Source of the DNA: Eledone cirrhosa
Lineage: Eukaryota
Assembly (NCBI GenBank): GCA_964016885.1
Contig: OZ024746.1
Location: 78,182,001 to 78,246,000 of the forward strand
DNA: 64,000 nt
Direction of reading: 5' to 3'
The notes beneath the pieces were generated by a model. That model was not told where the DNA came from. It ran no database searches and saw nothing but the letters and a program-made list of their open reading frames with translations. Positions 242 to 62,995 of this stretch are shown here, piece by piece (within the stretch, counting starts at the first letter, position 1; each line of letters begins with the position of its first letter). A program made the position numbers and the translations under genes.

Positions 242-3200
242 TTAACCCATTAGAATTTAAACTGGCCATGTCTGGCCAGAATTCTCTCACCTATTTCTGT
301 TGAAACTGGCTATAAATAAGTAACATCAAAATCTCATAGATTCGATATTATGTGAGATAATCATGTAAGATAGAGCCTTTACTGTGAAAATACAATAGTA
401 AATATAGAGTAATGTAAGTGTTACGTGAGATAATCATGTAAGATAGAGCCTTTACTGTGAAAATACAATAGTAAATATAGAGTAATGTAAGTGTTACGTG
501 AGATAATCATGTAAGATAGAGCCTTTACTGTGAAAATACAATAGTAAATATAGAGTAATGTAAGTGTTATGTGAGATAATCATGTAAGATAGAGCCTTTA
601 CTGTGAAAATACAATAGTAAATATAGAGTAATGTAAGTGTTATGTGAGATAATCATGTAAGATAGAGGAGCCTTTACTGTGAAAATACAATAGTAAATAT
701 AGAGTAATGTAAGTGTTATGTGAAATAATCATGTAAGATAGAGGAGCCTTTACTGTGAAAATACAATAGTAAATATAGAGTAATGTAAGTGTTATGTGAG
801 ATAATCATGTAAGATAGAGGAGCCTTTACTGTGAAAATACAATAGTAAATATAGAGTAATGTAAGTGTTATGTGAGATAATCATGTAAGATAGAGCCTTT
901 ACTGTGAAAATACAATAGTAAATATAGAGTAATGTAAGTGTTATGTGAGATAATCATGTAAGATAGAGCCTTTACTGTGAAAATACAATAGTAAATATAG
1001 AGTAATGTAAGTGTTATGTGAGATAATCATGTAAGATAGAGCCTTTACTGTGAAAATACAATAGTAAATATAGAGTAATGTAAGTGTTATGTGAGATAAT
1101 CATGTAAGATAGAGCCTTTACTGTGAAAATACAATAGTAAATATAGAGTAATGTAAGTGTTATGTGAAATAATCATGTAAGATAGAGGAGCCTTTACTGT
1201 GAAAATACAATAGTAAATATAGAGTAATGTAAGTGTTATGTGAGATAATCATGTAAGATAGAGCCTTTACTGTGAAAATACAATAGTAAATATAGAGTAA
1301 TGTAAGTGTTATGTGAGATAATCATGTAAGATAGAGCCTTTACTGTGAAAATACAATAGTAAATATAGAGTAATGTAAGTGTTATGTGAGATAATCATGT
1401 AAGATAGAGCCTTTACTGTGAAAATACAATAGTAAATATAGAGTAATGTAAGTGTTATGTGAGATAATCATGTAAGATAGAGCCTTTACTGTGAAAATAC
1501 AATAGTAAATATAGAGTAATGTAAGTGTTATGTGAGATAATCATGTAAGATAGAGCCTTTACTGTGAAAATACAATAGTAAATATAGAGTAATGTAAGTG
1601 TTATGTGAAATAATCATGTAAGATAGAGGAGCCTTTACTGTGAAAATACAATAGTAAATATAGAGTAATGTAAGTGTTATGTGAGATAATCATGTAAGAT
1701 AGAGCCTTTACTGTGAAAATACAATAGTAAATATAGAGTAATGTAAGTGTTATGTGAGATAATCATGTAAGATAGAGCCTTTACTGTGAAAATACAATAG
1801 TAAATATAGAGTAATGTAAGTGTTATGTGAGATAATCATGTAAGATAGAGCCTTTACTGTGAAAATACAATAGTAAATATAGAGTAATGTAAGTGTTATG
1901 TGAGATAATCATGTAAGATAGAGGAGCCTTTACTGTGAAAATACAATAGTAAATATAGAGTAATGTAAGTGTTATGTGAGATAATCATGTAAGATAGAGC
2001 CTTTACTGTGAAAATACAATAGTAAATATAGAGTAATGTAAGTGTTATGTGAGATAGAGCCTTTACTGTGAAAATACAATAGTAAATATAGAGTAATGTA
2101 AGTGTTATGTGAGATAATCATGTAAGATAGAGCCTTTACTGTGAAAATACAATAGTAAATATAGAGTAATGTAAGTGTTATGTGAGATAATCATGTAAGA
2201 TAGAGCCTTTACTGTGAAAATACAATAGTAAATATAGAGTAATGTAAGTGTTATGTGAGATAATCATGTAAGATAGAGCCTTTACTGTGAAAATACAATA
2301 GTAAATATAGAGTAATGTAAGTGTTATGTGAGATAATCATGTAAGATAGAGCCTTTACTGTGAAAATACAATAGTAAATATAGAGTAATGTAAGTGTTAT
2401 GTGAGATAATCATGTAAGATAGAGCCTTTACTGTGAAAATACAATAGTAAATATAGAGTAATGTAAGTGTTATGTGAGATAATCATGTAAGATAGAGCCT
2501 TTACTGTGAAAATACAATAGTAAATATAGAGTAATGTAAGTGTTATGTGAAATAATCATGTAAGATAGAGGAGCCTTTACTGTGAAAATACAATAGTAAA
2601 TATAGAGTAATGTAAGTGTTATGTGAGATAATCATGTAAGATAGAGCCTTTACTGTGAAAATACAATAGTAAATATAGAGTAATGTAAGTGTTATGTGAG
2701 ATAATCATGTAAGATAGAGCCTTTACTGTGAAAATACAATAGTAAATATAGAGTAATGTAAGTGTTATGTGAGATAATCATGTAAGATAGAGCCTTTACT
2801 GTGAAAATACAATAGTAAATATAGAGTAATGTAAGTGTTATGTGAGATAATCATGTAAGATAGAGCCTTTACTGTGAAAATACAATAGTAAATATAGAGT
2901 AATGTAAGTGTTATGTGAGATAATCATGTAAGATAGAGCCTTTACTGTGAAAATACAATAGTAAATATAGAGTAATGTAAGTGTTATGTGAAATAATCAT
3001 GTAAGATAGAGGAGCCTTTACTGTGAAAATACAATAGTAAATATAGAGTAATGTAAGTGTTATGTGAGATAATCATGTAAGATAGAGCCTTTACTGTGAA
3101 AATACAATAGTAAATATAGAGTAATGTAAGTGTTATGTGAGATAATCATGTAAGATAGAGCCTTTACTGTGAAAATACAATAGTAAATATAGAGTAATGT

Positions 3201-3937
3201 AAGTGTTATGTGAGATAATCATGTAAGATAGAGCCTTTACTGTGAAAATACAATAGTAAATATAGAGTAATGTAAGTGTTATGTGAGATAATCATGTAAG
3301 ATAGAGGAGCCTTTACTGTGAAAATACAATAGTAAATATAGAGTAATGTAAGTGTTATGTGAGATAATCATGTAAGATAGAGCCTTTACTGTGAAAATAC
3401 AATAGTAAATATAGAGTAATGTAAGTGTTATGTGAGATAGAGCCTTTACTGTGAAAATACAATAGTAAATATAGAGTAATGTAAGTGTTATGTGAGATAA
3501 TCATGTAAGATAGAGCCTTTACTGTGAAAATACAATAGTAAATATAGAGTAATGTAAGTGTTATGTGAGATAATCATGTAAGATAGAGCCTTTACTGTGA
3601 AAATACAATAGTAAATATAGAGTAATGTAAGTGTTATGTGAGATAATCATGTAAGATAGAGCCTTTACTGTGAAAATACAATAGTAAATATAGAGTAATG
3701 TAAGTGTTATGTGAGATAATCATGTAAGATAGAGCCTTTACTGTGAAAATACAATAGTAAATATAGAGTAATGTAAGTGTTATGTGAGATAATCATGTAA
3801 GATAGAGCCTTTACTGTGAAAATACAATAGTAAATATAGAGTAATGTAAGTGTTATGTGAGATAATCATGTAAGATAGAGCCTTTACTGTGAAAATACAA
3901 TAGTAAATATAGAGTAATGTAAATGCTAAAGGGTTAA
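242..3937. mobile_element. piggyBac-like non-autonomous MITE, internally expanded by a satellite
   Basis: TTAA (242-245) + CCCATTAGAATTT ... AAATGCTAAAGGG + TTAA (3934-3937): 11/13 TIR match with TTAA target; unexpanded relatives at 5990-6203 and 59755-59950. Confidence 0.8.
348..3922. repeat. 73-bp tandem satellite, about 49 copies
   Basis: Unit GTGAGATAATCATGTAAGATAGAGCCTTTACTGTGAAAATACAATAGTAAATATAGAGTAATGTAAGTGTTAT; 76-bp (+GAG) and 60-bp (13-bp deletion) variants. Confidence 0.97.
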
Positions 3938-8447: not shown

Positions 8448-8863
8448 GGGTGGTGGATTGGCAGAATCGGTAGAGCATTGGACACCATGCTTTGCAACAT
8501 AGAGTTGCGTCCCTTTATGTTCTGAGTTCAAATCCTGCGCCGAGAGTAGCTTTGCCTTTCATCCTTACGGGATCGATAAAATAAAGTACCAGTAACGCAC
8601 TGGCTAATTGCTGGCCTTGTGCCAAAAGTAGAAACAATTATTATTATTATTATTATTATTATTATGGCGGTGGATTGGCAATATCGGTAGAGGGCCGGAC
8701 GCCATGCTTTGATGCATAGAGTTACGGCCCTTGCCATTCTGAGTTCAAATCCCGCCAAGGTTAACTTTGCCTTTCATCCTTACGGGGTCGATACAATAAA
8801 GTACCAGTAATACACTGTGTATGTGCTGGCCTTGTGCCAAAAGTAGAAACAATTATTATTATT
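8448..8863 (+). mobile_element. Two head-to-tail SINE family A copies with (ATT)n tails
   Basis: GG.GGTGGATTGGCA heads at 8448 and 8666; B-box GAGTTCAAATCC; central CCTTTCATCCTTACGGG.TCGATA; tails CTGGCCTTGTGCCAAAAGTAGAAACAATTATT. Confidence 0.9.
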
Positions 8864-9904
8864 CCTCGACAGTGATCAGGCGTGGTCGCCGTTTGCTAGA
8901 CGCGTCTTTCCCCAGGTCGTCTCCTTGACGGAGCTGCAGTCCTGGGTCAAGCGAAGACCGAGAGGGAGCGCTTGGAGACTGGAATGTCTTCAGGCGCTCA
9001 CAGCCCTTGACCAATCGGGCAATGTGATCGGTGGAAACTTCACCTTGGCGTTCTATAGAGGATTAGTGGAGGGGAAGAGCGACAACGTACTTGGGGAAAC
9101 TCTAAGCGTTGACGAAAATCAACTAGCCAATCTCTTCGGAAGAACTTTCGGGCCGGGGCCTATGGACAACTTCCAGAAATCCCTGGCCTGGCAGTGCTAC
9201 CGAGGAGCTTTGCCAGTTCAGGATAAACTCTACAGGCGTGGAGGTGCCGTCAGCCGGGCATGTCCGAGATGTACGCAGGGCGACGAAACCGTCCTGCACG
9301 CACTCATCCAGTGTCCGAGCATTGCTGACTTGTGGGTTTATGTCGAACACCTGCTGTCGCGTGTAGGACGGATCCGGCTATCAGCTGAGTCCATTGTGAG
9401 GATTGCCCCGCCCTCTTCCTTTAGCCGGGAAGGGCAGGCAGTTTTTATCTGTCTGGTAGCCATGGCGAAAGAGATAGTATGGTGGACACGTTTGAAAGGG
9501 CTGAAGACGAGCACTTACCTCTTCGGTGATGCCCTGATTAACTTTTTCAAATTTCATTTGAAAAGGAAAATCAGGGTAGAGAGGGAAGTGTTCTCTTCCC
9601 AGCATTTTGTTGAAAGATGGGTGAGAGAGGCAAGAATGGCCTGTGTCTGTAAATTAAAGGTGGAAAACTGGGAGCGGACACTTGCCCTGGTGGTCAGAGT
9701 CACTGTGGCTTTTAATGGGCTTTCTCCACGAATGTCCCTCGGAAGTCTCCCCCCATATTGGGGAATTTTTCATTGTTATGTTTTTTTGTTACATCCTCTG
9801 TTTTTGTTTTTTACACGCAGAAATACCCATTTGTACCGTCCTGTATTGTCCTGTACTGTCCTTGATGTCTACTTTATGTAAACCCTTGTGGTTAATAAAG
9901 AAAG

Positions 9905-15308: not shown

Positions 15309-15786
15309 AATGTATGTATGTAAGTGTTATTATGTGCATGTATTATTATGTGTATATGTATATATATATATATATATATGTATGTATATATATTATGTGT
15401 ATATGTATATATATATATGTATGTATTTATATATATATATATATATATATGTATTTATATATATATATATGTATTTATATATATATATATATATATAAAA
15501 ACAAATAACGAAACGAAATTAAATTTCGTTTCGCTTCTAACTCACTTTTGTATGACTGACGCTTAAACAATTAAGTTAAAGTGTACATCTACATATGTAT
15601 ACGGAAGTATTAGTATGCATATAAATACACACATGTATACATATGTACATGTACTCAGCTTTTCACTAGACACTTTACAGTGAGTGTCAGCTAGTCTGTA
15701 TGTAACCACACAGACGGACCGGGTTTTAGAGTCATACGGGTTTTCAAGGAAACACATTTCCTCTATTCTCCAGAGGGCCAGACAGG

Positions 15787-15831
15787 AATATTGGACTAGT
15801 TTCGATGTTATTACATCTCATCAGCAATATT
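15787..15831 (-). ncRNA. Type I hammerhead ribozyme (minimal), array copy 1
   Basis: Minus strand reads AAUAUUG CUGAUGA GAUGU aaua ACAUC GAAA CUAG UC CAAUAUU: full core, stems I and II, palindromic stem III ACUAGU, GUC site. Confidence 0.88.
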
Positions 15832-16255
15832 TACCCATCTTCCGGCTTCTCTGGAGAATTGTAAAAGCACATATCGTTATATGCTTTTTCTATGAAAATT
15901 AGTAGTGGGTAGACTAATTTGCATAGAACGTGAGTCATTGTACGCACCGGTTCAGCGGAAACGATAAAAACAAATAACGAAACGAAATTAAATTTCGTTT
16001 CGCTTCTAACTCACTTTTGTATGACTGACGCTTAAACAATTAAGTTAAAGTGTACATCTACATATGTATACGGAAGTATTAGTATGCATATAAATACACA
16101 CATGTATACATATGTACATGTACTCAGCTTTTCACTAGACACTTTACAGTGAGTGTCAGCTAGTCTGTATGTAACCACACAGACGGACCGGGTTTTAGAG
16201 TCATACGGGTTTTCAAGGAAACACATTTCCTCTATTCTCCAGAGGGCCAGACAGG

Positions 16256-16300
16256 AATATTGGACTAGTTTCGATGTTATTACATCTCATCAGCAATATT
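16256..16300 (-). ncRNA. Type I hammerhead ribozyme, array copy 2
   Basis: Identical to 15787-15831 (+469). Confidence 0.88.
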
Positions 16301-16724
16301 TACCCATCTTCCGGCTTCTCTGGAGAATTGTAAAAGCACATATCGTTATATGCTTTTTCTATGAAAATTAGTAGTGGGTAGACTAATTTGCATAGAACGT
16401 GAGTCATTGTACGCACCGGTTCAGCGGAAACGATAAAAACAAATAACGAAACGAAATTAAATTTCGTTTCGCTTCTAACTCACTTTTGTATGACTGACGC
16501 TTAAACAATTAAGTTAAAGTGTACATCTACATATGTATACGGAAGTATTAGTATGCATATAAATACACACATGTATACATATGTACATGTACTCAGCTTT
16601 TCACTAGACACTTTACAGTGAGTGTCAGCTAGTCTGTATGTAACCACACAGACGGACCGGGTTTTAGAGTCATACGGGTTTTCAAGGAAACACATTTCCT
16701 CTATTCTCCAGAGGGCCAGACAGG

Positions 16725-16769
16725 AATATTGGACTAGTTTCGATGTTATTACATCTCATCAGCAATATT
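16725..16769 (-). ncRNA. Type I hammerhead ribozyme, array copy 3
   Basis: Identical to 15787-15831 (+938). Confidence 0.88.
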
Positions 16770-16857
16770 TACCCATCTTCCGGCTTCTCTGGAGAATTGT
16801 AAAAGCACATATCGTTATATGCTTTTTCTATGAAAATTAGTAGCCGGAAGATGGGTA

Positions 16858-16902
16858 AATATTGCTGATGAGATGTAATAACATCGAAACTAGTCCAATA
16901 TT
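16858..16902 (+). ncRNA. Type I hammerhead ribozyme, array copy 4
   Basis: AATATTG CTGATGA (16865-16871) GATGT AATA ACATC GAAA (16886-16889) CTAG TC CAATATT; predicted cleavage after C16895. Confidence 0.9.
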
Positions 16903-17326
16903 CCTGTCTGGCCCTCTGGAGAATAGAGGAAATGTGTTTCCTTGAAAACCCGTATGACTCTAAAACCCGGTCCGTCTGTGTGGTTACATACAGACTAGCT
17001 GACACTCACTGTAAAGTGTCTAGTGAAAAGCTGAGTACATGTACATATGTATACATGTGTGTATTTATATGCATACTAATACTTCCGTATACATATGTAG
17101 ATGTACACTTTAACTTAATTGTTTAAGCGTCAGTCATACAAAAGTGAGTTAGAAGCGAAACGAAATTTAATTTCGTTTCGTTATTTGTTTTTATCGTTTC
17201 CGCTGAACCGGTGCGTACAATGACTCACGTTCTATGCAAATTAGTCTACCCACTACTAATTTTCATAGAAAAAGCATATAACGATATGTGCTTTTACAAT
17301 TCTCCAGAGAAGCCGGAAGATGGGTA

Positions 17327-17371
17327 AATATTGCTGATGAGATGTAATAACATCGAAACTAGTCCAATATT
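17327..17371 (+). ncRNA. Type I hammerhead ribozyme, array copy 5
   Basis: Identical motif, CTGATGA at 17334; cleavage after C17364. Confidence 0.9.
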
Positions 17372-17795
17372 CCTGTCTGGCCCTCTGGAGAATAGAGGAA
17401 ATGTGTTTCCTTGAAAACCCGTATGACTCTAAAACCCGGTCCGTCTGTGTGGTTACATACAGACTAGCTGACACTCACTGTAAAGTGTCTAGTGAAAAGC
17501 TGAGTACATGTACATATGTATACATGTGTGTATTTATATGCATACTAATACTTCCGTATACATATGTAGATGTACACTTTAACTTAATTGTTTAAGCGTC
17601 AGTCATACAAAAGTGAGTTAGAAGCGAAACGAAATTTAATTTCGTTTCGTTATTTGTTTTTATCGTTTCCGCTGAACCGGTGCGTACAATGACTCACGTT
17701 CTATGCAAATTAGTCTACCCACTACTAATTTTCATAGAAAAAGCATATAACGATATGTGCTTTTACAATTCTCCAGAGAAGCCGGAAGATGGGTA

Positions 17796-17840
17796 AATAT
17801 TGCTGATGAGATGTAATAACATCGAAACTAGTCCAATATT
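17796..17840 (+). ncRNA. Type I hammerhead ribozyme, array copy 6
   Basis: Identical motif, CTGATGA at 17803. Confidence 0.9.
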
Positions 17841-18264
17841 CCTGTCTGGCCCTCTGGAGAATAGAGGAAATGTGTTTCCTTGAAAACCCGTATGACTCTA
17901 AAACCCGGTCCGTCTGTGTGGTTACATACAGACTAGCTGACACTCACTGTAAAGTGTCTAGTGAAAAGCTGAGTACATGTACATATGTATACATGTGTGT
18001 ATTTATATGCATACTAATACTTCCTTGTACATATGTAGATGTACACTTTAACTTAATTGTTTAAGCGTCAGTCATACAAAAGTGAGTTAGAAGCGAAACG
18101 AAATTTAATTTCGTTTCGTTATTTGTTTTTATCGTTTCCGCTGAACCGGTGCGTACAATGACTCACGTTCTATGCAAATTAGTCTACCCACTACTAATTT
18201 TCATAGAAAAAGCATATAACGATATGTGCTTTTACAATTCTCCAGAGAAGCCGGAAGATGGGTA

Positions 18265-18309
18265 AATATTGCTGATGAGATGTAATAACATCGAAACTAG
18301 TCCAATATT
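18265..18309 (+). ncRNA. Type I hammerhead ribozyme, array copy 7
   Basis: Identical motif, CTGATGA at 18272. Confidence 0.9.
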
Positions 18310-18733
18310 CCTGTCTGGCCCTCTGGAGAATAGAGGAAATGTGTTTCCTTGAAAACCCGTATGACTCTAAAACCCGGTCCGTCTGTGTGGTTACATACAG
18401 ACTAGCTGACACTCACTGTAAAGTGTCTAGTGAAAAGCTGAGTACATGTACATATGTATACATGTGTGTATTTATATGCATACTAATACTTCCGTATACA
18501 TATGTAGATGTACACTTTAACTTAATTGTTTAAGCGTCAGTCATACAAAAGTGAGTTAGAAGCGAAACGAAATTTAATTTCGTTTCGTTATTTGTTTTTA
18601 TCGTTTCCGCTGAACCGGTGCGTACAATGACTCACGTTCTATGCAAATTAGTCTACCCACTACTAATTTTCATAGAAAAAGCATATAACGATATGTGCTT
18701 TTACAATTCTCCAGAGAAGCCGGAAGATGGGTA

Positions 18734-18778
18734 AATATTGCTGATGAGATGTAATAACATCGAAACTAGTCCAATATT
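18734..18778 (+). ncRNA. Type I hammerhead ribozyme, array copy 8
   Basis: Identical motif, CTGATGA at 18741. Confidence 0.9.
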
Positions 18779-18995
18779 CCTGTCTGGCCCTCTGGAGAAT
18801 AGAGGAAATGTGTTTCCTTGAAAACCCGTATGACTCTAAAACCCGGTCCGTCTGTGTGGTTACATACAGACTAGCTGACACTCACTGTAAAGTGTCTAGT
18901 GAAAAGCTGAGTACATGTACATATGTATACATGTGTGTATTTATATGCATACTAATACTTCCGTATACATATGTAGATGTACACTTTAACTTAAT

Positions 18996-19047
<52 letters not shown>

Positions 19048-29727: not shown

Positions 29728-30036
29728 ATCTTCCCTAGATCCCTTGCATTCAACTCTCTCTTTTTTTTACACCTATCTCTCTCTCTATCCCCCTCTCTAG
29801 ACCCCCCCTCTCATCTATCAATCAATCGATCTGTCTCTCTCTATCTATCAATATGTCTCTCTATCTCTCTATCTCACTGTCTTTGTATCTGTTTATTTGT
29901 CACTCTCTATCATCATTATTGTGAGTTAGTCTGTGGACACACACATACACACACATATATATGTGTGTGTATGTGTGTGTATATATATATATACAATATA
30001 TTAAACAAATGGAAAATATATTTATAAAACCATATT

Positions 30037-30102
30037 TATTTCATTATACATATTTCAAGGGCCACCAGAGCAAACTATGGTGCGCTTTCATCAGATAAAA
30101 TA
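30037..30102 (-). ncRNA. Type I hammerhead ribozyme (family B), left arm
   Basis: Reverse complement of 30234-30299. Confidence 0.65.
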
Positions 30103-30233
30103 TAATATAGGTTAGTTTTATAAATAAATATTGACATACCCTTAAAAAATGCAACCATTATGGAGATTCCAACCAGAATGGTTGCATTTTTTAAGGGTAT
30201 GTCAATATTTATTTATAAAACTAACCTATATTA

Positions 30234-30299
30234 TATTTTATCTGATGAAAGCGCACCATAGTTTGCTCTGGTGGCCCTTGAAATATGTATAATGAAATA
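30234..30299 (+). ncRNA. Type I hammerhead ribozyme (family B), right arm
   Basis: UAUUUUAU CUGAUGA AAG..CACCA..UGGUG..CUU GAAA UAUGUAU A AUGAAAUA; 8-bp stem I, AUA cleavage triplet. Confidence 0.65.
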
Positions 30300-30454
30300 A
30301 ATATGGTTTTATATATATAGTTTCCATTTGTTTAATATATTGTATATTTACTCCAATAATTTGTTGAGTGCTTTATATCAGTTATAAAAATATTTAGCTT
30401 GTTGTATCGCAACAAATTAAATAAAACCTCTACATATATATATATATATATATA

Positions 30455-31257
30455 TATTAGAAAGATCGAGTATCGAAAAATCGGCGCACGAGTTCACGAT
30501 AAACAAAATTCGAAATGAGCGGCAGAGGGCTCAATAATTCAGATGAATCAGAGCTATAACTATCGTTAAAATACCGTCACATATAGAACAAGTCTACAAT
30601 CAACCATACGATAAAAAATCGATAATAGAAGATTCGGGACAAACAGATAAAAAATATCAAAAAAACAATACATCAATAATTTAAATGAATGTAAAATCAT
30701 ACCCGGACCCACTAGAAAGGTGTTAAATCTAGCTTCATGGGTTTCTGTAAATCCTTAGACTGTACTCTATCAGCTCACATATAAATATAAAAGCCTACTA
30801 GAGCAAGAGGAACGGAGTTTACTTTCTCAACGAGCTTTTTTCCTAGCGGAAAAGGGGCTAACTACCAGTGAAAAACGCACATGGCATTAGACAAGGGAGA
30901 TAACCCCTATATCCGCGAAAACTATTCGAGGGAATGTGGAAATACACATATCGAATAAGAGTGCTCAATAGACATGTTAAAATAAAACAAAAGCTATTCA
31001 TCACTCAATAGAATCGACAAAAAATGAGCAATAAAATTAACTGGTGGATAGCTATGTCCAGAGCTAAATATATTAGAAAGATCGAGTATCGAAAAATCGG
31101 CGCACGAGTTCACGATAAACAAAATTCGAAATGAGCGGCAGAGGGCTCAATAATTCAGATGAATCAGAGCTATAACTATCGTTAAAATACCGTCACATAT
31201 AGAACAAGTCTACAATCAACCATACGATAAAAAATCGATAATAGAAGATTCGGGACA

Positions 31258-32502: not shown

Positions 32503-32523
32503 CAGATTTAATATAGAAACGTT

Positions 32524-33468
32524 TCCTTCCTCAGTCGACGTTGTCACCCCCACCCTCCTCAGTCGACGTTGTCACCCCTTCCTTCCTCAGTCGACGTTGT
32601 CACCCCCACCCTCCTCAGTCGACGTTGTCACCCCTTCTTTCCTCAGTCGACGTAATCACCCCCACCTTCCTCAGTCGACATTGTCACCCCTTCCTTCATC
32701 AGTCGATATAATCACCCCTTCCTTCATCAGTCGACATTGTCACCCCTTCCTTCATCAGTCGATATAATCACCCCTTCCTTCATCAGTCGACGTTGTCACC
32801 CCTTCCTTCATCAGTCGATATAATCACCCCTTCTTTCCTCAGTCGACGTTGTCACCCCTTCCTTCATCAGTCGATATAATCACCCCTTCCTTCATCAGTC
32901 GACGTTGTCACCCCTTCCTTCATCAGTCGATATAATCACCCCTTCCTTCATCAGTCGACGTTGTCACCCCTTCCTTCATCAGTCGATATAATCACCCCTT
33001 CCTTCATCAGTCGACGTTGTCACCCCTTCCTTCATCAGTCGATATAATCACCCCTTCCTTCATCAGTCGACATTGTCACCCCTTCCTTCATCAGTCGATA
33101 TAATCACCCCTTCCTTCATCAGTCGACGTTGTCACCCCTTCCTTCATCAGTCGATATAATCACCCCTTCCTTCATCAGTCGATATAATCACCCCTTCCTT
33201 CATCAGTCGACGTTGTCACCCCTTCCTTCATCAGTCGATATAATCACCCCTTCTTTCCTCAGTCGACGTTGTCACCTCTTCCTTCCTTCCTTCATCAGTC
33301 GACGTAATCACCCCTTCCTTCCTCAGTCAACATAGTCACCCCATCCTTCCTCGGTCGACATAATCACCCCTTCCTTCCTCGGTCGACGTAATCACCCCTT
33401 CCTTCCTCGGTCGACGTAATCACCCCTTCCTTCTTCAGTCGAGGTCAACCCCTCTTCTTTCCTCAGTC
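32524..33468. repeat. 28-bp minisatellite with alternating A/B units (56-bp higher order), about 34 units
   Basis: CACCCCTTCCTTCATCAGTCGA-CGTTGT alternating with -TATAAT. Confidence 0.95.
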
Positions 33469-38137: not shown

Positions 38138-38180
<43 letters not shown>

Positions 38181-38185
<5 letters not shown>

Positions 38186-38467
38186 CAAAATATTAACAAA
38201 TGAAAAATATTCTCATAATCAAAATATATACTTTATTATATATATTTCAAAGGTACTGTGTTATTTTTTCAGTACGTCCTCATCAGACAAAATATATGAT
38301 TTGCTATATGACATACCGCTACGGTCTTCATTATACAATTCCAGTATTGGCATAGTTTCCATTTATTAATATATTGAATATTTACTCCAGTAATTTGTTG
38401 AGTGCTTTATATCAGTTATGAAACTTTTAAGCTTGTTGAATCCCAACAAATTAAATATAACTTCTAC
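38181..38467. mobile_element. Family B HHR element with inverted architecture
   Basis: Minus-strand HHR in the left part, plus-strand family B tail in the right part; (TA)n flanks. Confidence 0.7.
38227..38296 (-). ncRNA. Type I hammerhead ribozyme (family B)
   Basis: UAUAUUUUGU CUGAUGA GGAC GUACUG..CAGUAC CUUU GAAA UAUAUAU A AUAAAGUAUA; 10-bp stem I. Confidence 0.65.
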
Positions 38468-38485
38468 ATTTATATATGTGTATAC

Positions 38486-41687: not shown

Positions 41688-41770
<83 letters not shown>

Positions 41771-41816
41771 TAAATCTTAACCATTTAACATCTCAGGGTA
41801 TGTCATGTATCATTAT

Positions 41817-41869
41817 ATTTTGTCTGATGAGGACGTACTGTTGTACCTCCGAAATATGTATAATAAAAT
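41817..41869 (+). ncRNA. Type I hammerhead ribozyme (family B) in a 145-bp insert (41771-41915) between (TA)n tracts
   Basis: AUUUUGU CUGAUGA GGACGUAC uguu GUACCUCC GAAA UAUGUAU A AUAAAAU; canonical G-C closing stem II. Confidence 0.75.
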
Positions 41870-41909
41870 TTAATTGATCAAAAGAACATCTATTTTATTA
41901 ATATTTGTA

Positions 41910-41950
<41 letters not shown>

Positions 41951-42085
41951 CGAAGGAAATGTGGTAAGGAACCAGGTGGACCATAACGCACCAAAGTACT
42001 CAATACTTAGGGTAGTAGAGTGGGTAATTAGTCCAGAATTAGCCGTCGAAACGGTTTGAGCTCAGCCGTCGGGGTCCTACTCGTT

Positions 42086-53740: not shown

Positions 53741-56383
53741 CTTAATAACTCATTGGTCAAGAAAACAATGGTACAGACACGGTCTTAATGACCCATTGGT
53801 CAAGACAACAATGGTACAGACACGGTCTTAATGACCCATTGGTCAAGACAACAATGGTACAGACACGGTCTTAATGACTCCTTGGTCAAGAAAACAATGG
53901 TACAGACACGGTCTTAATGACTCATTGGTCAAGAAAACAATGGTACAGACACGGTCTTAATGACTCCTTGGTCAAGAAAACAATGGTACAGACATGGTCT
54001 TAATGACTCCTTGGTCAAGAAAACAATGGTACAGACACGGTCTTAATGACTCCTTGGTCAAGAAAACAATGGTACAGACACGGTCTTCATGACTCATTGG
54101 TCAAGAAAACAATGGTACAGACACGGTCTTAATGACTCCTTGGTCAAGAAAACAATGGTACAGACACGGTCTTAATGACTCATTGGTCAAGAAAACAATG
54201 GTACAGACACGGTCTTCATGACTCATTGGTCAAGAAAACAATGGTACAGACACGGTCTTCATGACTCATTGGTCAAGAAAACAATGGTACAGACACGGTC
54301 TTAATGACTCCTTGGTCAAGAAAACAATGGTACAGACACGGTCTTCATGACTCATTGGTCAAGAAAACAATGGTACAGACACGGTCTTAATGACTCCTTG
54401 GTCAAGAAAACAATGGTACAGACACGGTCTTCATGACTCATTGGTCAAGAAAACAATGGTACAGACACGGTCTTAATGACTCCTTGGTCAAGAAAACAAT
54501 GGTACAGACACGGTCTTAATGACTCCTTGGTCAAGAAAACAATGGTACAGACACGGTCTTCATGACTCATTGGTCAAGAAAACAATGGTACAGACACGGT
54601 CTTCATGACTCATTGGTCAAGAAAACAATGGTACAGACACGGTCTTAATGACTCCTTGGTCAAGAAAACAATGGTACAGACACGGTCTTCATGACTCATT
54701 GGTCAAGAAAACAATGGTACAGACACGGTCTTAATGACCCATTGGTCAAGAAAACAATGGTACAGACACGGTCTTAATGACCCATTGGTCAAGAAAACAA
54801 TGGTACAGACATGGTCTTAATGACTCATTGGTCAAGAAAACAATGGTACAGACATGGTCTTCATGACTCATTGGTCAAGAAAACAATGGTACAGACATGG
54901 TCTTAATGACTCATTGGTCAAGAAAACAATGGTACAGACATGGTCTTAATGACTCATTGGTCAAGAAAACAATGGTACAGACATGGTCTTAATGACTCAT
55001 TGGTCAAGAAAACAATGGTACAGACATGGTCTTCATGACTCATTGGTCAAGAAAACAATGGTACAGACATGGTCTTAATTACTCATTGGTCAAGAAAACA
55101 ATGGTACAGACATGGTCTTCATGACTCATTGGTCAAGAAAACAATGGTACAGACACGGTCTTAATGACTCATTGGTCAAGAAAACAATGGTACAGACATG
55201 GTCTTAATGACTCATTGGTCAAGAAAACAATGGTACAGACATGGTCTTAATGACTCATTGGTCAAGAAAACAATGGTACAGACATGGTCTTAATGACTCA
55301 TTGGTCAAGAAAACAATGGTACAGACATGGTCTTAATGACCCATTGGACAAGAAAACAATGGTACAGACATGGTCTTAATGACTCATTGGTCAAGAAAAC
55401 AATGGTACAGACATGGTCTTAATGACTCATTGGTCAAGAAAACAATGGTACAGACATGGTCTTAATGACTCATTGGTCAAGAAAACAATGGTACAGACAT
55501 GGTCTTAATGACTCATTGGTCAAGAAAACAATGGTACAGACATGGTCTTAATGACCCATTGGTCAAGAAAACAATGGTACAGACACGGTCTTAATGACTC
55601 ATTGGTCAAGAAAACAATGGTACAGACATGGTCTTAATGACTCATTGGTCAAGAAAACAATGGTACAGACATGGTCTTAATGATTCATTGGTCGAGAAAA
55701 CAATGGTAGACACGGTCTTCATGACTCATTGGTCAAGAAAACAATGGTACAGACACGGTCTTAATGACTCATTGGTCGAGAAAACAATGGTAGACACGGT
55801 CTTCATGACTCATTGGTCAAGAAAACAATGGTACAGACACGGTCTTCATGACTCATTGGTCAAGAAAACAATGGTACAGACATGGTCTTAATGACTCCTT
55901 GGACAAGAAAACAATGGTACAGACACGGTCTTAATGACTCATTGGTCAAGAAAACAATGGTACAGACACGGTCTTAATGACTCATTAGTCAAGAAAACAA
56001 TGGTACAGACATGGTCTTAATGACTCATTGGTCAAGAAAACAATGGTACAGACACGGTCTTAATGACTCCTTGGACAAGAAAACAATGGTACAGACACGG
56101 TCTTAATGACTCCTTGGACAAGAAAACAATGGTACAGACACGGTCTTAATGACCCATTGGTCAAGAAAACAATGGTACAGACATGGTCTTAATGACTCCT
56201 TGGACAAGAAAACAATGGTACATACATGGTCTTAATGACTCATTGGTCAAGAAAACAATGGTACAGACATGGTCTTAATGACCCATTGGTCAAGAAAACA
56301 ATGGTACAGACATGGTCTTAATGACCCCTTGGACAAGAAAACAATGGTACAGACATGGTCTTAATGACCCATTGGTCAAGAAA
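53741..56383. repeat. 43-bp tandem satellite, about 61 copies
   Basis: Unit GACTCATTGGTCAAGAAAACAATGGTACAGACACGGTCTTAAT with a few recurrent variants. Confidence 0.97.
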
Positions 56384-57056
56384 TCAAAGTGAAATTGCTA
56401 GAATCAAATACAGTTCTTTAACTATGGTATCTTTAAGTTTTAGCCAATTTTCTGCAATGCCTGCTTGTAAAATAACAAAATAACAAATACTGTATTTATC
56501 ATTTTACATTTGTTTTCCATACTGACGTGGGTTAGATAGGTTGTCACAGTCCAAGGAGATATCCCATCATGTATGTGTGTTCCATATTTGGTATGGATTT
56601 TACAGCTGGATGCCCTTCCTAACACCAACCACTTCACTGGGTGGATTTTATCATGAAACCAGCACTTAGCAGAGTGCACTGGATATAGTTTTATCACTGG
56701 CTATAGAGCTATCACTTTACAGAGTATACTGGGTGTATTTTGTCGTAGCACCAGAGCTAAGACATTACATAGTGTTCTCTGTGCATTTTATTGTGACACC
56801 CAGCACTGCACTACCACTTCACAGCATGTACTAAATGTATTTTATCATGGAACCAACATGACGACATTATAGAATGCACTGGGTGCATTTTATCATGGCA
56901 CCAATATTACCACTTTGCAGAATGCATTGGGTGCATTTTATTGTGTTACTAACACTACCATTTTGCAGAGTGCACTGGGTGCATTTTATAAAGACAGCAA
57001 CACCAGAGATGTCATGTACTCATCCAGACTGAAAGTTCCTCTCTAACCTGTATTGT

Positions 57057-61590: not shown

Positions 61591-61708
61591 TATATATATA
61601 TATACCTATCTAGGGCGGGTAAAATTCCTGATATATACAATACATACATATATATATATATATTCAATGATATTAAATAAATGGAAACTATATTTATAAA
61701 ACGATATT

Positions 61709-61769
61709 TATTCTATTATATATATTTCAAGTGTACCAAAACTTTGGTACGCTCTCATCAGATAAAATA
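61709..61769 (-). ncRNA. Type I hammerhead ribozyme (family B) within element 61662-62068
   Basis: UAUUUUAU CUGAUGA GAG C GUACCAA..UUGGUAC A CUU GAAA UAUAUAU A AUAGAAUA. Confidence 0.65.
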
Positions 61770-62080
61770 CAAAGTTTGTTTTATAAATATTGACATATCC
61801 AGGAAGAAGATCTTAATGGTTCAAGTTTTTCCTGGATAGTAAAAGGAAGAAGGGAAAGAGAAGAAAAGTCAAATATTTCAAATTATTAAGATGAGTATGC
61901 AAATAGGGCTGAAAAAAACATTATTTTTAGATGCTAGGTAGATTTAAATAATTATTAGGATATATGTATGTAGGAAGAAGAAAAAGAAAGAAAACTGTTG
62001 AGTGCTCCGAATCAGTTATAAACATTTATATATGTTGAATTACCAACAAAGTAAATATCCCTTTTGCTTATATATATATA

Positions 62081-62650
62081 AGTGTCAAACTAACCACGGA
62101 GCTCAAGGCAATCCAGCGAAGCTACACCAAGAGGATTGCCACGATGAAGGAGATAAGCTACTGGGAGAGGCTAAAAGAACTGAACCTCTACTCCTTGGAA
62201 CAAAGACGGGAGAGAAATGCAGTGATCTACATGTAGAAAATCCTGGAGGGACTAGCATCAAACTTTGGCATTGGGAGCTGGACCAACCATCAAACAGGAC
62301 GTCACTGTGTGGTGCCAAAGGTCCCGTCTTCCACATCTAGAATAAGGAGCAGATATTGCAATAGGCTGGGATTCAAGGGCCCTCAACTCTTCAACAAGCT
62401 GCCGAGGGATCTGAGAGATCTGCATGGTGTGGAGGTGGATGTCTTCAAGAAACATCTCGACACCTTGTTATCCAGGATCCCGGAGGAGCCCACAGCAAGG
62501 CACGAGGGAAACCTAAGGGCAGTAGCAACAAACTCCCTTGCACCAGTGGCCAACCAATACAGGCTGGGGATAAAATGTGTAGCAACAAGGGCGGTGCCCG
62601 AGCATGGCCTCAGCCGGATGGCTGGAACAGGTAAAAGAGTAAAAGAGAAT
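62081..62650 (+). mobile_element. CR1-clade LINE 3' fragment (ORF2 C-terminus, one stop)
   Basis: ELKAIQRSYTKRIATMKEISYWERLKELNLYSLEQRRERNAVIYM*KILEG...FNKLPRDLR...FKKHLDTLLSRIPEEP...AVATNSL; tail GTAAAAGAGTAAAAGAG. Confidence 0.85.
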
Positions 62651-62665
62651 ATATATATATATATG

Positions 62666-62995
62666 GAGGCACATGGCTTAGTGGTTAGAGCATTGGCCTT
62701 GCAATCGAAAGGTTGTGAGTTCAATTCTCAGACCGGGTGATGTGTTGTTTCCTTGAGCAAGACGCTCTATTTCACATTGCTCCAGTTTACTCAGCTGTAG
62801 AAATGAGATGATAGGGACTGGGGTCCCTATCATTCCACTGCAAAGTGGACGTGGAGGTGCCACGGAAAAAAAGCACCCTGCACTCACTGTAAATGAGGTT
62901 GGTGTTAGGAAGGGCATCCAGCTGTAGAAATCAAGCCAGAATCAGTTCCCGTCCCACCCTTGCAAGCAGGGAAAAAGCGGACGTAAAATGATGAA
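62666..62995 (+). mobile_element. Composite SINE, near-identical to 21487-21826
   Basis: Same head, CORE-like block, perfect hairpin ATGATAGGGAC-TGGG-GTCCCTATCAT (62808-62833) and RTE tail. Confidence 0.85.

Follow-up and report, generated by a model that had tools for sequence, protein, structure and literature searches.

The 64,000-nucleotide stretch of Eledone cirrhosa DNA analysed here (the window) contains a nearly perfect palindrome at 29990-30346 with a hammerhead ribozyme (HHR) motif in each arm, and the question raised by this locus is what kind of element it represents and how its two arms came to stand head to head. The palindrome is composed of two 5'-truncated end-pieces of a Penelope-like element (PLE), each a pLTR with a predicted HHR, placed head to head in (TA)n. 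Inverted truncated copies, a tail on one inverted pLTR, TA targeting and HHRs are already described for PLEs in the published passages drawn on here; the origin of the tandem and inverted structures and of the tails is posed as an open question in the relevant part of PMC8557442, and self-priming is proposed for inverted structures in that of PMC3846280. The repeat itself is of a known kind, and its value lies in counts that bear on this origin. Young and abundant families provide counts that discriminate, namely one tail per pair in 65/65, non-nested arms, a cross-family pair and no ends at the predicted HHR cut; these four, together with a cluster of ends at a likely transcription start, are what is added here.

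The focal palindrome and related loci

The palindrome arms (29990-30163 and 30173-30346) pair at 171/174 positions, with 3 mismatches and a 9-nt loop, and one CUGAUGA...GAAA...AUA motif is present in each, in agreement with the preliminary description of a 170-bp-arm palindrome with one HHR per arm. The same description had both HHR arms pointing outward into (TA)n, which holds for the left arm, directly adjoining (TA)n, but not for the right arm, which extends ~84 nt more past the palindrome, and hence the focal element is asymmetric (Table 1). As pieces of the family B1 pLTR, the arms overlap by 2 nt at the junction, and their 5' ends lie 19 nt (left) and 8 nt (right) inside a putative start A. 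In each arm the predicted hammerhead combines a 7-bp stem I with an internally mismatched stem II and a stem III that is palindromic; in the right arm the mismatch is C.C, stem III reads AUAUGUAU and A-U stands at 10.1-11.1. In contigs of four runs from one study, possibly itself the source, the focal junction was not spanned and other left-to-right joints were present; these contigs are not counted as evidence.

Table 1. Coordinates of family B features in the window
Feature	Position	Strand	Detail
(TA)n target, left side	29980..29991	.	Sequence; arm border ambiguous by a few bases
Left arm, 5'-truncated family B1 pLTR, ends at site 1, tail-less	29992..30163	-	96.6% to natural B1 copy L028
Type I hammerhead (predicted), left arm	30038..30101	-	C3 at 30094; predicted cut after 30045
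Right arm, 5'-truncated family B1 pLTR up to site 1	30162..30349	+	Sequence comparison
Type I hammerhead (predicted), right arm	30235..30298	+	C3 at 30242; predicted cut after 30291
Tail, site 1 to site 2, ~84 nt	30350..30434	+	In full elements, 5' UTR stretch ending ~50 nt before ATG
(TA)n target, right side	30435..30457	.	Sequence
Family B2 arm, tail-less	38178..38352	-	HHR 38230-38293, predicted cut after 38237
Family B5 arm with tail, truncation 3' of its HHR; cross-family partner	38352..38468	+	97.4% to B5
Family B3 single arm, tail-less, between TA runs	41769..41918	+	HHR 41817-41869, predicted cut after 41862
Family B4 arm, tail-less	61655..61993	-	HHR 61710-61768, predicted cut after 61717
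Family B4 arm, tail only	61989..62068	+	No element sequence in common with left arm

The four window loci are 5'-truncated ends, with five related families involved, all of them tied to RT/EN frames. Two of the loci, 38181-38467 and 61662-62068, had been described as a minus-strand HHR on the left with a plus-strand tail on the right. These motifs are present in both, but the tail of 38181-38467 belongs to B5 and not to B2, the family of the left arm: the B2 arm abuts the B5 tail with no TA between them, and no match to this tail was found at the corresponding place in the left arm's family reference. Earlier statements on 41771-41915 as a single copy, on the predicted cut after A41862 and on the stem II pairings of the three related loci were confirmed.

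Full-length elements and assignment to the Hydra clade

Walking upstream from the window copy through the genome leads to RT and endonuclease frames. A genome search with the focal right arm gave 1796 first-look candidates; 40 of them were scored, at 97-100%, and sequence was fetched for 30 loci. These B1 loci have a common 3' end and a varying 5' extent. Searches with the families gave 914-2612 first-look candidates each, with 40 scored; such candidates are not copy numbers, and at these numbers the motif loci are not due to chance. The family unit measures ~4.0 kb (3953-4166 bp in four copies) and comprises a pLTR, HHR, tail, ATG, a 743-aa RT plus GIY-YIG frame and a 1.5-kb 3' region. A whole unit is represented by L073, with a truncated pLTR containing the HHR, the tail, the ATG ~50 nt on, a broken open reading frame and 1.5 kb of 3' sequence, after which the pLTR and HHR are repeated and end tail-less. 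Partial tandems forming pLTRs were observed in L073, L200, L203, L207 and L249. Intact 743-aa frames were found in L194, L195 and L196 by a protein search with 150 of 35453 candidates scored, and the L196 frame has 85% identity to that of L073 over 247 aligned residues. Among 16 long stretches fetched, RT/EN-related frames stand in line with the ends in L247 (B2), L244 and L249 (B3) and L252 (B4), and a near-B5 HHR lies upstream of the intact L194 frame. Family B is end debris of several Hydra-type PLE families. A ~4-kb array at G000:C4:316578512-316590809 (L061, L062) was considered as a full-element tandem and rejected, since only a truncated B1 3' fragment is found there among other repeats. 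Other, more distant GIY-YIG retroelement frames lie beside family B copies at L073:7283-8269 (+) and L044:1-714 (oriented coordinates).

Most family B copies are short and non-coding, which would suit a separate non-autonomous palindromic element (retrozyme or MITE-like) moving as a unit, but such an origin is hardly credible, as junction points and arm lengths vary by locus, no identical junction recurred across 30 B1 loci, and RT/EN frames follow on from these same ends. Non-LTR retrozymes are recognized by tandem non-coding HHR units without an open reading frame of their own, whereas family B ends run into such frames. A separate small fold-back element was likewise dismissed for the focal palindrome, because the upstream walk in the genome ends in an RT plus GIY-YIG frame.

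The family B ends almost certainly belong to a Hydra-type PLE. The L196 protein was folded in an alignment of 104 rows, which also contained L194 and 102 of 120 listed homologs, and its predicted structure (pLDDT 90.9) has a telomerase RT as best fold match (TERT 3du5, E 5.4e-9), with YRDD in 102/104 aligned rows of one open reading frame with a telomerase-like RT. The C-terminal GIY-YIG endonuclease, recognized by motif alone, has Y622, Y635, G637, R646 and H650 invariant in 104 rows and lacks the CCHH cysteine pair, with one Cys between Y622 and Y635. DKT is located at 118, RWR at 37 as a variant of RWK (77 RWK and 20 RWR among 104 rows), the CxCX5C linker at 601-609, CxxC at 699 and CxH at 726. 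Among the homologs listed, the one with a species name is an Argonauta protein at 39%. Pfam gave no RT or GIY-YIG match above cut-off for the frames or four homologs, although precomputed PF26215 is present on many homologs, and a PDB sequence search with the frames returned no significant match.

In the part of Craig et al. 2021 (PMC8557442) that defines it, the Hydra clade of endonuclease-bearing PLEs is characterized by RWK, DKT, a CxCX5C linker, no CCHH pair, CxxC, CxH, an HHR and (TA)n targets. Family B agrees with that account in the RT followed by a C-terminal GIY-YIG, in RW(R/K), DKT, CxCX5C, CxxC, CxH and the missing CCHH cysteine pair, and also in the HHR and insertion in (TA)n, partial tandems, an inverted truncated copy and a tail on one end. 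Differences from the same passages are RWR instead of RWK, a tail of 84-98 nt instead of 30-40 nt, and a unit of 3.95-4.17 kb against generally <3 kb, a descriptive and not strict figure that the family B unit exceeds because of its long 3' region. A first assignment to the Neptune clade was dropped, as the motif test indicated Hydra. The supplement of PMC8557442 contains Hydra-1_Obim, a Hydra family from Octopus bimaculoides, which in a comparison by eye only is distinct from family B and has a different HHR.

Structure of the hammerhead motif and its selection

The window motifs contain the type I hammerhead core (CUGANGA, GAAA and NUH) with three stems. This core had been called invariant, and the five window motifs do share it exactly, but from family to family position 7 can be T, A, G or C, and genomic copies carry core changes. 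Private changes amount to 6/1832 in the core and 189/22868 in the flanks (pooled p 0.019, separately p 0.08 and 0.17), figures that do not establish purely neutral decay of the copies. The G10.1-C11.1 pair is not kept, being A-U in 10, G-U in 7 and G-C in 4 of 22 rows, with A-U in the focal copies. Focused Rfam scans of two motifs with E up to 10 gave no hammerhead match, and none was among the 150 listed of 360 Rfam matches to the whole window, where only microsatellite-driven miRNA matches appeared. For the monomer, the predicted minimum-energy structure is 5-9 kcal/mol more stable than the hammerhead fold.

Pairing was examined in 22 natural copies, which are mutually related, were chosen to cover stem variants and were found with a core-requiring pattern, so that core invariance within this set is circular. 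Overall, 96.2% of cells pair and 13/18 pairs change on both sides, a degree of pairing reached by 0/500 shuffles and not approached by any slid register. Covariation resides in stems I and II, while stem III is invariant and uninformative. The preliminary description, in which stems II and I vary yet stay paired under selection on ribozyme structure, is upheld on both points, the selection at the family level. Conservation of the stems among lineages, not core invariance, is what these related sequences can support, and the HHR is kept by selection on mobile lineages. The palindromic stem III suggests that cutting by the HHR would require a dimer or assistance from protein, and its role is perhaps the processing of tandem transcripts.

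Type I HHRs in PLE pLTRs, with covariation and weak dimer-dependent cleavage, are reported in the pertinent sections of Cervera and De la Pena 2014 (PMC4209133). The pLTR location, the family-level covariation and a small palindromic helix III for which a dimer is predicted to be required are shared with family B, as is the arrangement in Schistosoma of dual motifs on opposite strands, 100-700 bp apart, which resembles the family B pairs. The family B HHR differs from the motifs of those sections in its 7-bp stem I, the G10.1-C11.1 pair not being kept and the stem II C.C mismatch in most rows. At alignment columns 21/47, after the third stem II pair, C stands opposite C (sometimes A) in most of the 22 rows, and C21 is invariant while the pairs flanking the mismatch covary; the mismatch may be a point of tertiary or protein contact. 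Most stem I covariation comes from another HHR family, with a GC-richer stem I, observed at L042:1245-1309, L105:2881-2945 and L155:1780-1845.

One tail per head-to-head pair

For the five families, 150 loci were fetched and, after dropping the duplicates L096 and L214, 148 were scored against unchanged natural references. At 75/148 loci an inverted partner lies no more than 45 nt from the mapped 5' end, which, along with the same end offset in the 469-bp family A array, argues for the shared inversion-prone insertion mechanism proposed earlier. The other 73/148 have no abutting partner, 23/148 run beyond the reference, and long partners are missed (for example in L244 and L245). In 65 of the partnered loci both outer ends fall at site 1 or site 2 and can be scored (10/75 cannot), and all 65/65 pairs have exactly one tail, one arm stopping at site 1 and the other continuing 84-98 nt past it. 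The tail is on the main arm with a tail-less partner in 38 pairs, the reverse is true in 27, and none has arms alike. For B1 and B5 the query itself had selected tailed mains, whereas the B2-B4 queries did not preselect the end type, and B2-B4 alone gave 27 + 8 of 35 pairs as one-of-each with 0 same-type pairs (p 4e-8). The rule is also kept by seven long elements read by eye (L195, L200, L202, L203, L204, L207 and L211), and by L244 and L249, with the tail on the long or the short arm. Since every scorable pair has exactly one tailed arm, both target strands likely primed a copy.

Family elements do insert side by side in TA tracts, and two independent insertions at one spot, or recombination between copies, could account for the single cross-family pair. 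Yet this explanation is very improbable for the pairs: there is no TA run between arms at the junctions, same-type pairs would be expected and number 0/35 in B2-B4, and, with five or more families coexisting, both arms are still of one family in 64/65 pairs. The exception is the B2-B5 pair of the window, and because of it a single RNA cannot be the sole route. L030 was considered as a second cross-family pair and rejected, its 28-nt partner being 96% to B1. Minor variants are held in common by sibling arms in 57/220 and by non-siblings in 295/7751 comparisons, with 40/57 from one locus; such sharing would be equally expected from gene conversion.

5' ends and nesting of the arms

Among 66 partner arms, which were not selected by a query, 23 end in an 18-nt interval at a YCACT-like word that lies 105-140 nt upstream of the predicted HHR cut, an interval set after seeing the data and with BLAST ends uncertain by a few bases; 32/66 end further downstream and 11/66 upstream of it. 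None of the 66 ends within 3 nt of the predicted cut and 51/66 pass it, while of the B5 mains, selected on the tail only, 28/29 pass it and 9/29 end in the interval. Predicted HHR cleavage does not set the element ends, as 0/66 partner arms begin at the cut. From the end positions and its likeness to the Inr-like TCACT of a rotifer pLTR, described in a passage of PMC3846280, the YCACT-like word is likely the transcription start. A hairpin lies 3' of this site in all five families and folds weakly (z -0.85 to -2.66).

These ends bear on whether one arm was copied from the other by fold-back, that is by self-priming on an antisense transcript, as put forward in the relevant part of PMC3846280. 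The 5' ends of the two arms lie within 10 nt of each other in 17/63 pairs, with the focal pair nearly so, junctions often overlap by a few bases, and there is a hairpin at the usual 5' end, all of which would be compatible with it. However, in 28/63 same-family pairs the tail-less arm reaches >10 nt further 5' than the tailed arm and neither contains the other, 8 tailed arms consist of the tail only (e.g. 61989-62068), one pair joins two families, and the end cluster is also present in single arms (17/52, the B1-B4 singles being preselected by query start). Self-priming is contradicted for non-nested and cross-family pairs and survives only for nested pairs; as a general origin it is improbable, and the name fold-back given to the locus at the outset finds no support as a mechanism. 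The counts speak more for a model in which both target strands prime copies, with two internal RT start sites, than for fold-back self-priming.

Proposed mechanism

Taken as a whole, the locus is probably best explained as a Hydra-clade PLE end pair in (TA)n, with both nicked strands each priming a cDNA; for the two-strand priming step itself, which would follow the anole PLE by analogy, the balance tips modestly in favour. The PLE protein would bind near the 5' end of its own RNA, as in the anole PLE, and would nick both strands of the TA tract. Reverse transcription would then be initiated inside the RNA, one strand priming at site 1 and the other at site 2, and both cDNAs would be extended through the uncut hammerhead in the direction of the RNA 5' end. 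Run-off at the transcription start, ~190 and ~280 nt distant, may be frequent, and joining of the cDNA ends would generate the palindrome, while longer copies would need read-through or a circular template. Target-site duplications are unreadable in (TA)n.

In L1 twin priming, a second cDNA is primed from the second target strand, yielding an inversion. Family B is alike in second-strand priming and inversion; it is not an L1, and unlike L1 its arms usually overlap in sequence and begin at two fixed internal sites, with no poly(A) tail start. Obligate asymmetric twin priming has about an even chance of being the way in which PLE head-to-head insertions arise: a site 1 and a site 2 start near the 5' end of uncut mRNA would both be extended to the cap, with arms occasionally from different families' RNAs. 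If true, a single reaction would account for inverted and solo pLTRs and for the tail on one side only, and would mobilize the 469-bp retrozyme array as well, leaving the hammerhead without a role in fixing where insertions end.

For the anole PLE PAc (Poseidon of Anolis carolinensis), nicking and extension in vitro involve both strands, two internal RT starts bound the tail and uncut RNA is the main template, according to the passages on these assays in Frangieh et al. 2024 (PMC11167929), from which alone the idea of a protein homodimer is taken. PAc has in common with family B two fixed ends bounding a tail 3' of the HHR, an AT-rich target and copies reading through the HHR cut site, but it belongs to a different clade and its tail lies in the open reading frame, compared with the 5' UTR in family B. 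In those passages the two start sites are not connected with inverted pairs, unlike in the reading given here, and in the PLE literature searched, as far as its text was available, neither the strict one-of-each count nor such a link was found. The PMC11167929 passages also report no strand difference in the RT start sites, a result that does not predict the strictness of the one-of-each rule. The intact frames and defined RNA sites of family B suit an in vitro test, in a clade without biochemistry in the parts of the literature examined.

One tail per pair would also be produced directly if both arms began tailed and the element's endonuclease trimmed one at site 1 during resolution of the intermediate, following the reading of the tail in part of PMC8557442. 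Site 1 is rich in A and T, and cutting of AT-rich DNA by the anole protein within its own pLTR is described in a passage of PMC11167929; nevertheless trimming is unlikely, since in vitro RT starts fall on both tail ends in that source, tail-less ends are commoner in B2-B4 (62/89 mains), many of them without a partner, and two priming events would still be required with 28/63 pairs being non-nested. Priming of two cDNAs from the two nicked strands is retained as the preferred reading.

Other repeats of the window

At 15495-18996, the 469-bp HHR tandem array (family A) is arranged head-to-head, with outer ends that differ by a 74-nt tail; given the same one-tail signature, it is likely a retrozyme moved by PLE machinery. 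A further head-to-head pair of a different family lies in (TA)n at 41951-42080, its left arm being the tail that comes after the right arm's end in L085. No CUGANGA core was seen in this stretch, and the pair may be a PLE lacking a hammerhead. Tandem arrays of 73, 28 and 43 bp occupy 348-3922, 32523-33442 and 53741-56387, respectively; CTGATGA words in the 28-bp array were considered as hammerheads and rejected, the rest of the motif being absent. Open reading frames at 8847-9881 (+) and 62237-62740 (+) resemble C-terminal LINE ORF2 pieces (Tx1/L1-like and CR1-like).
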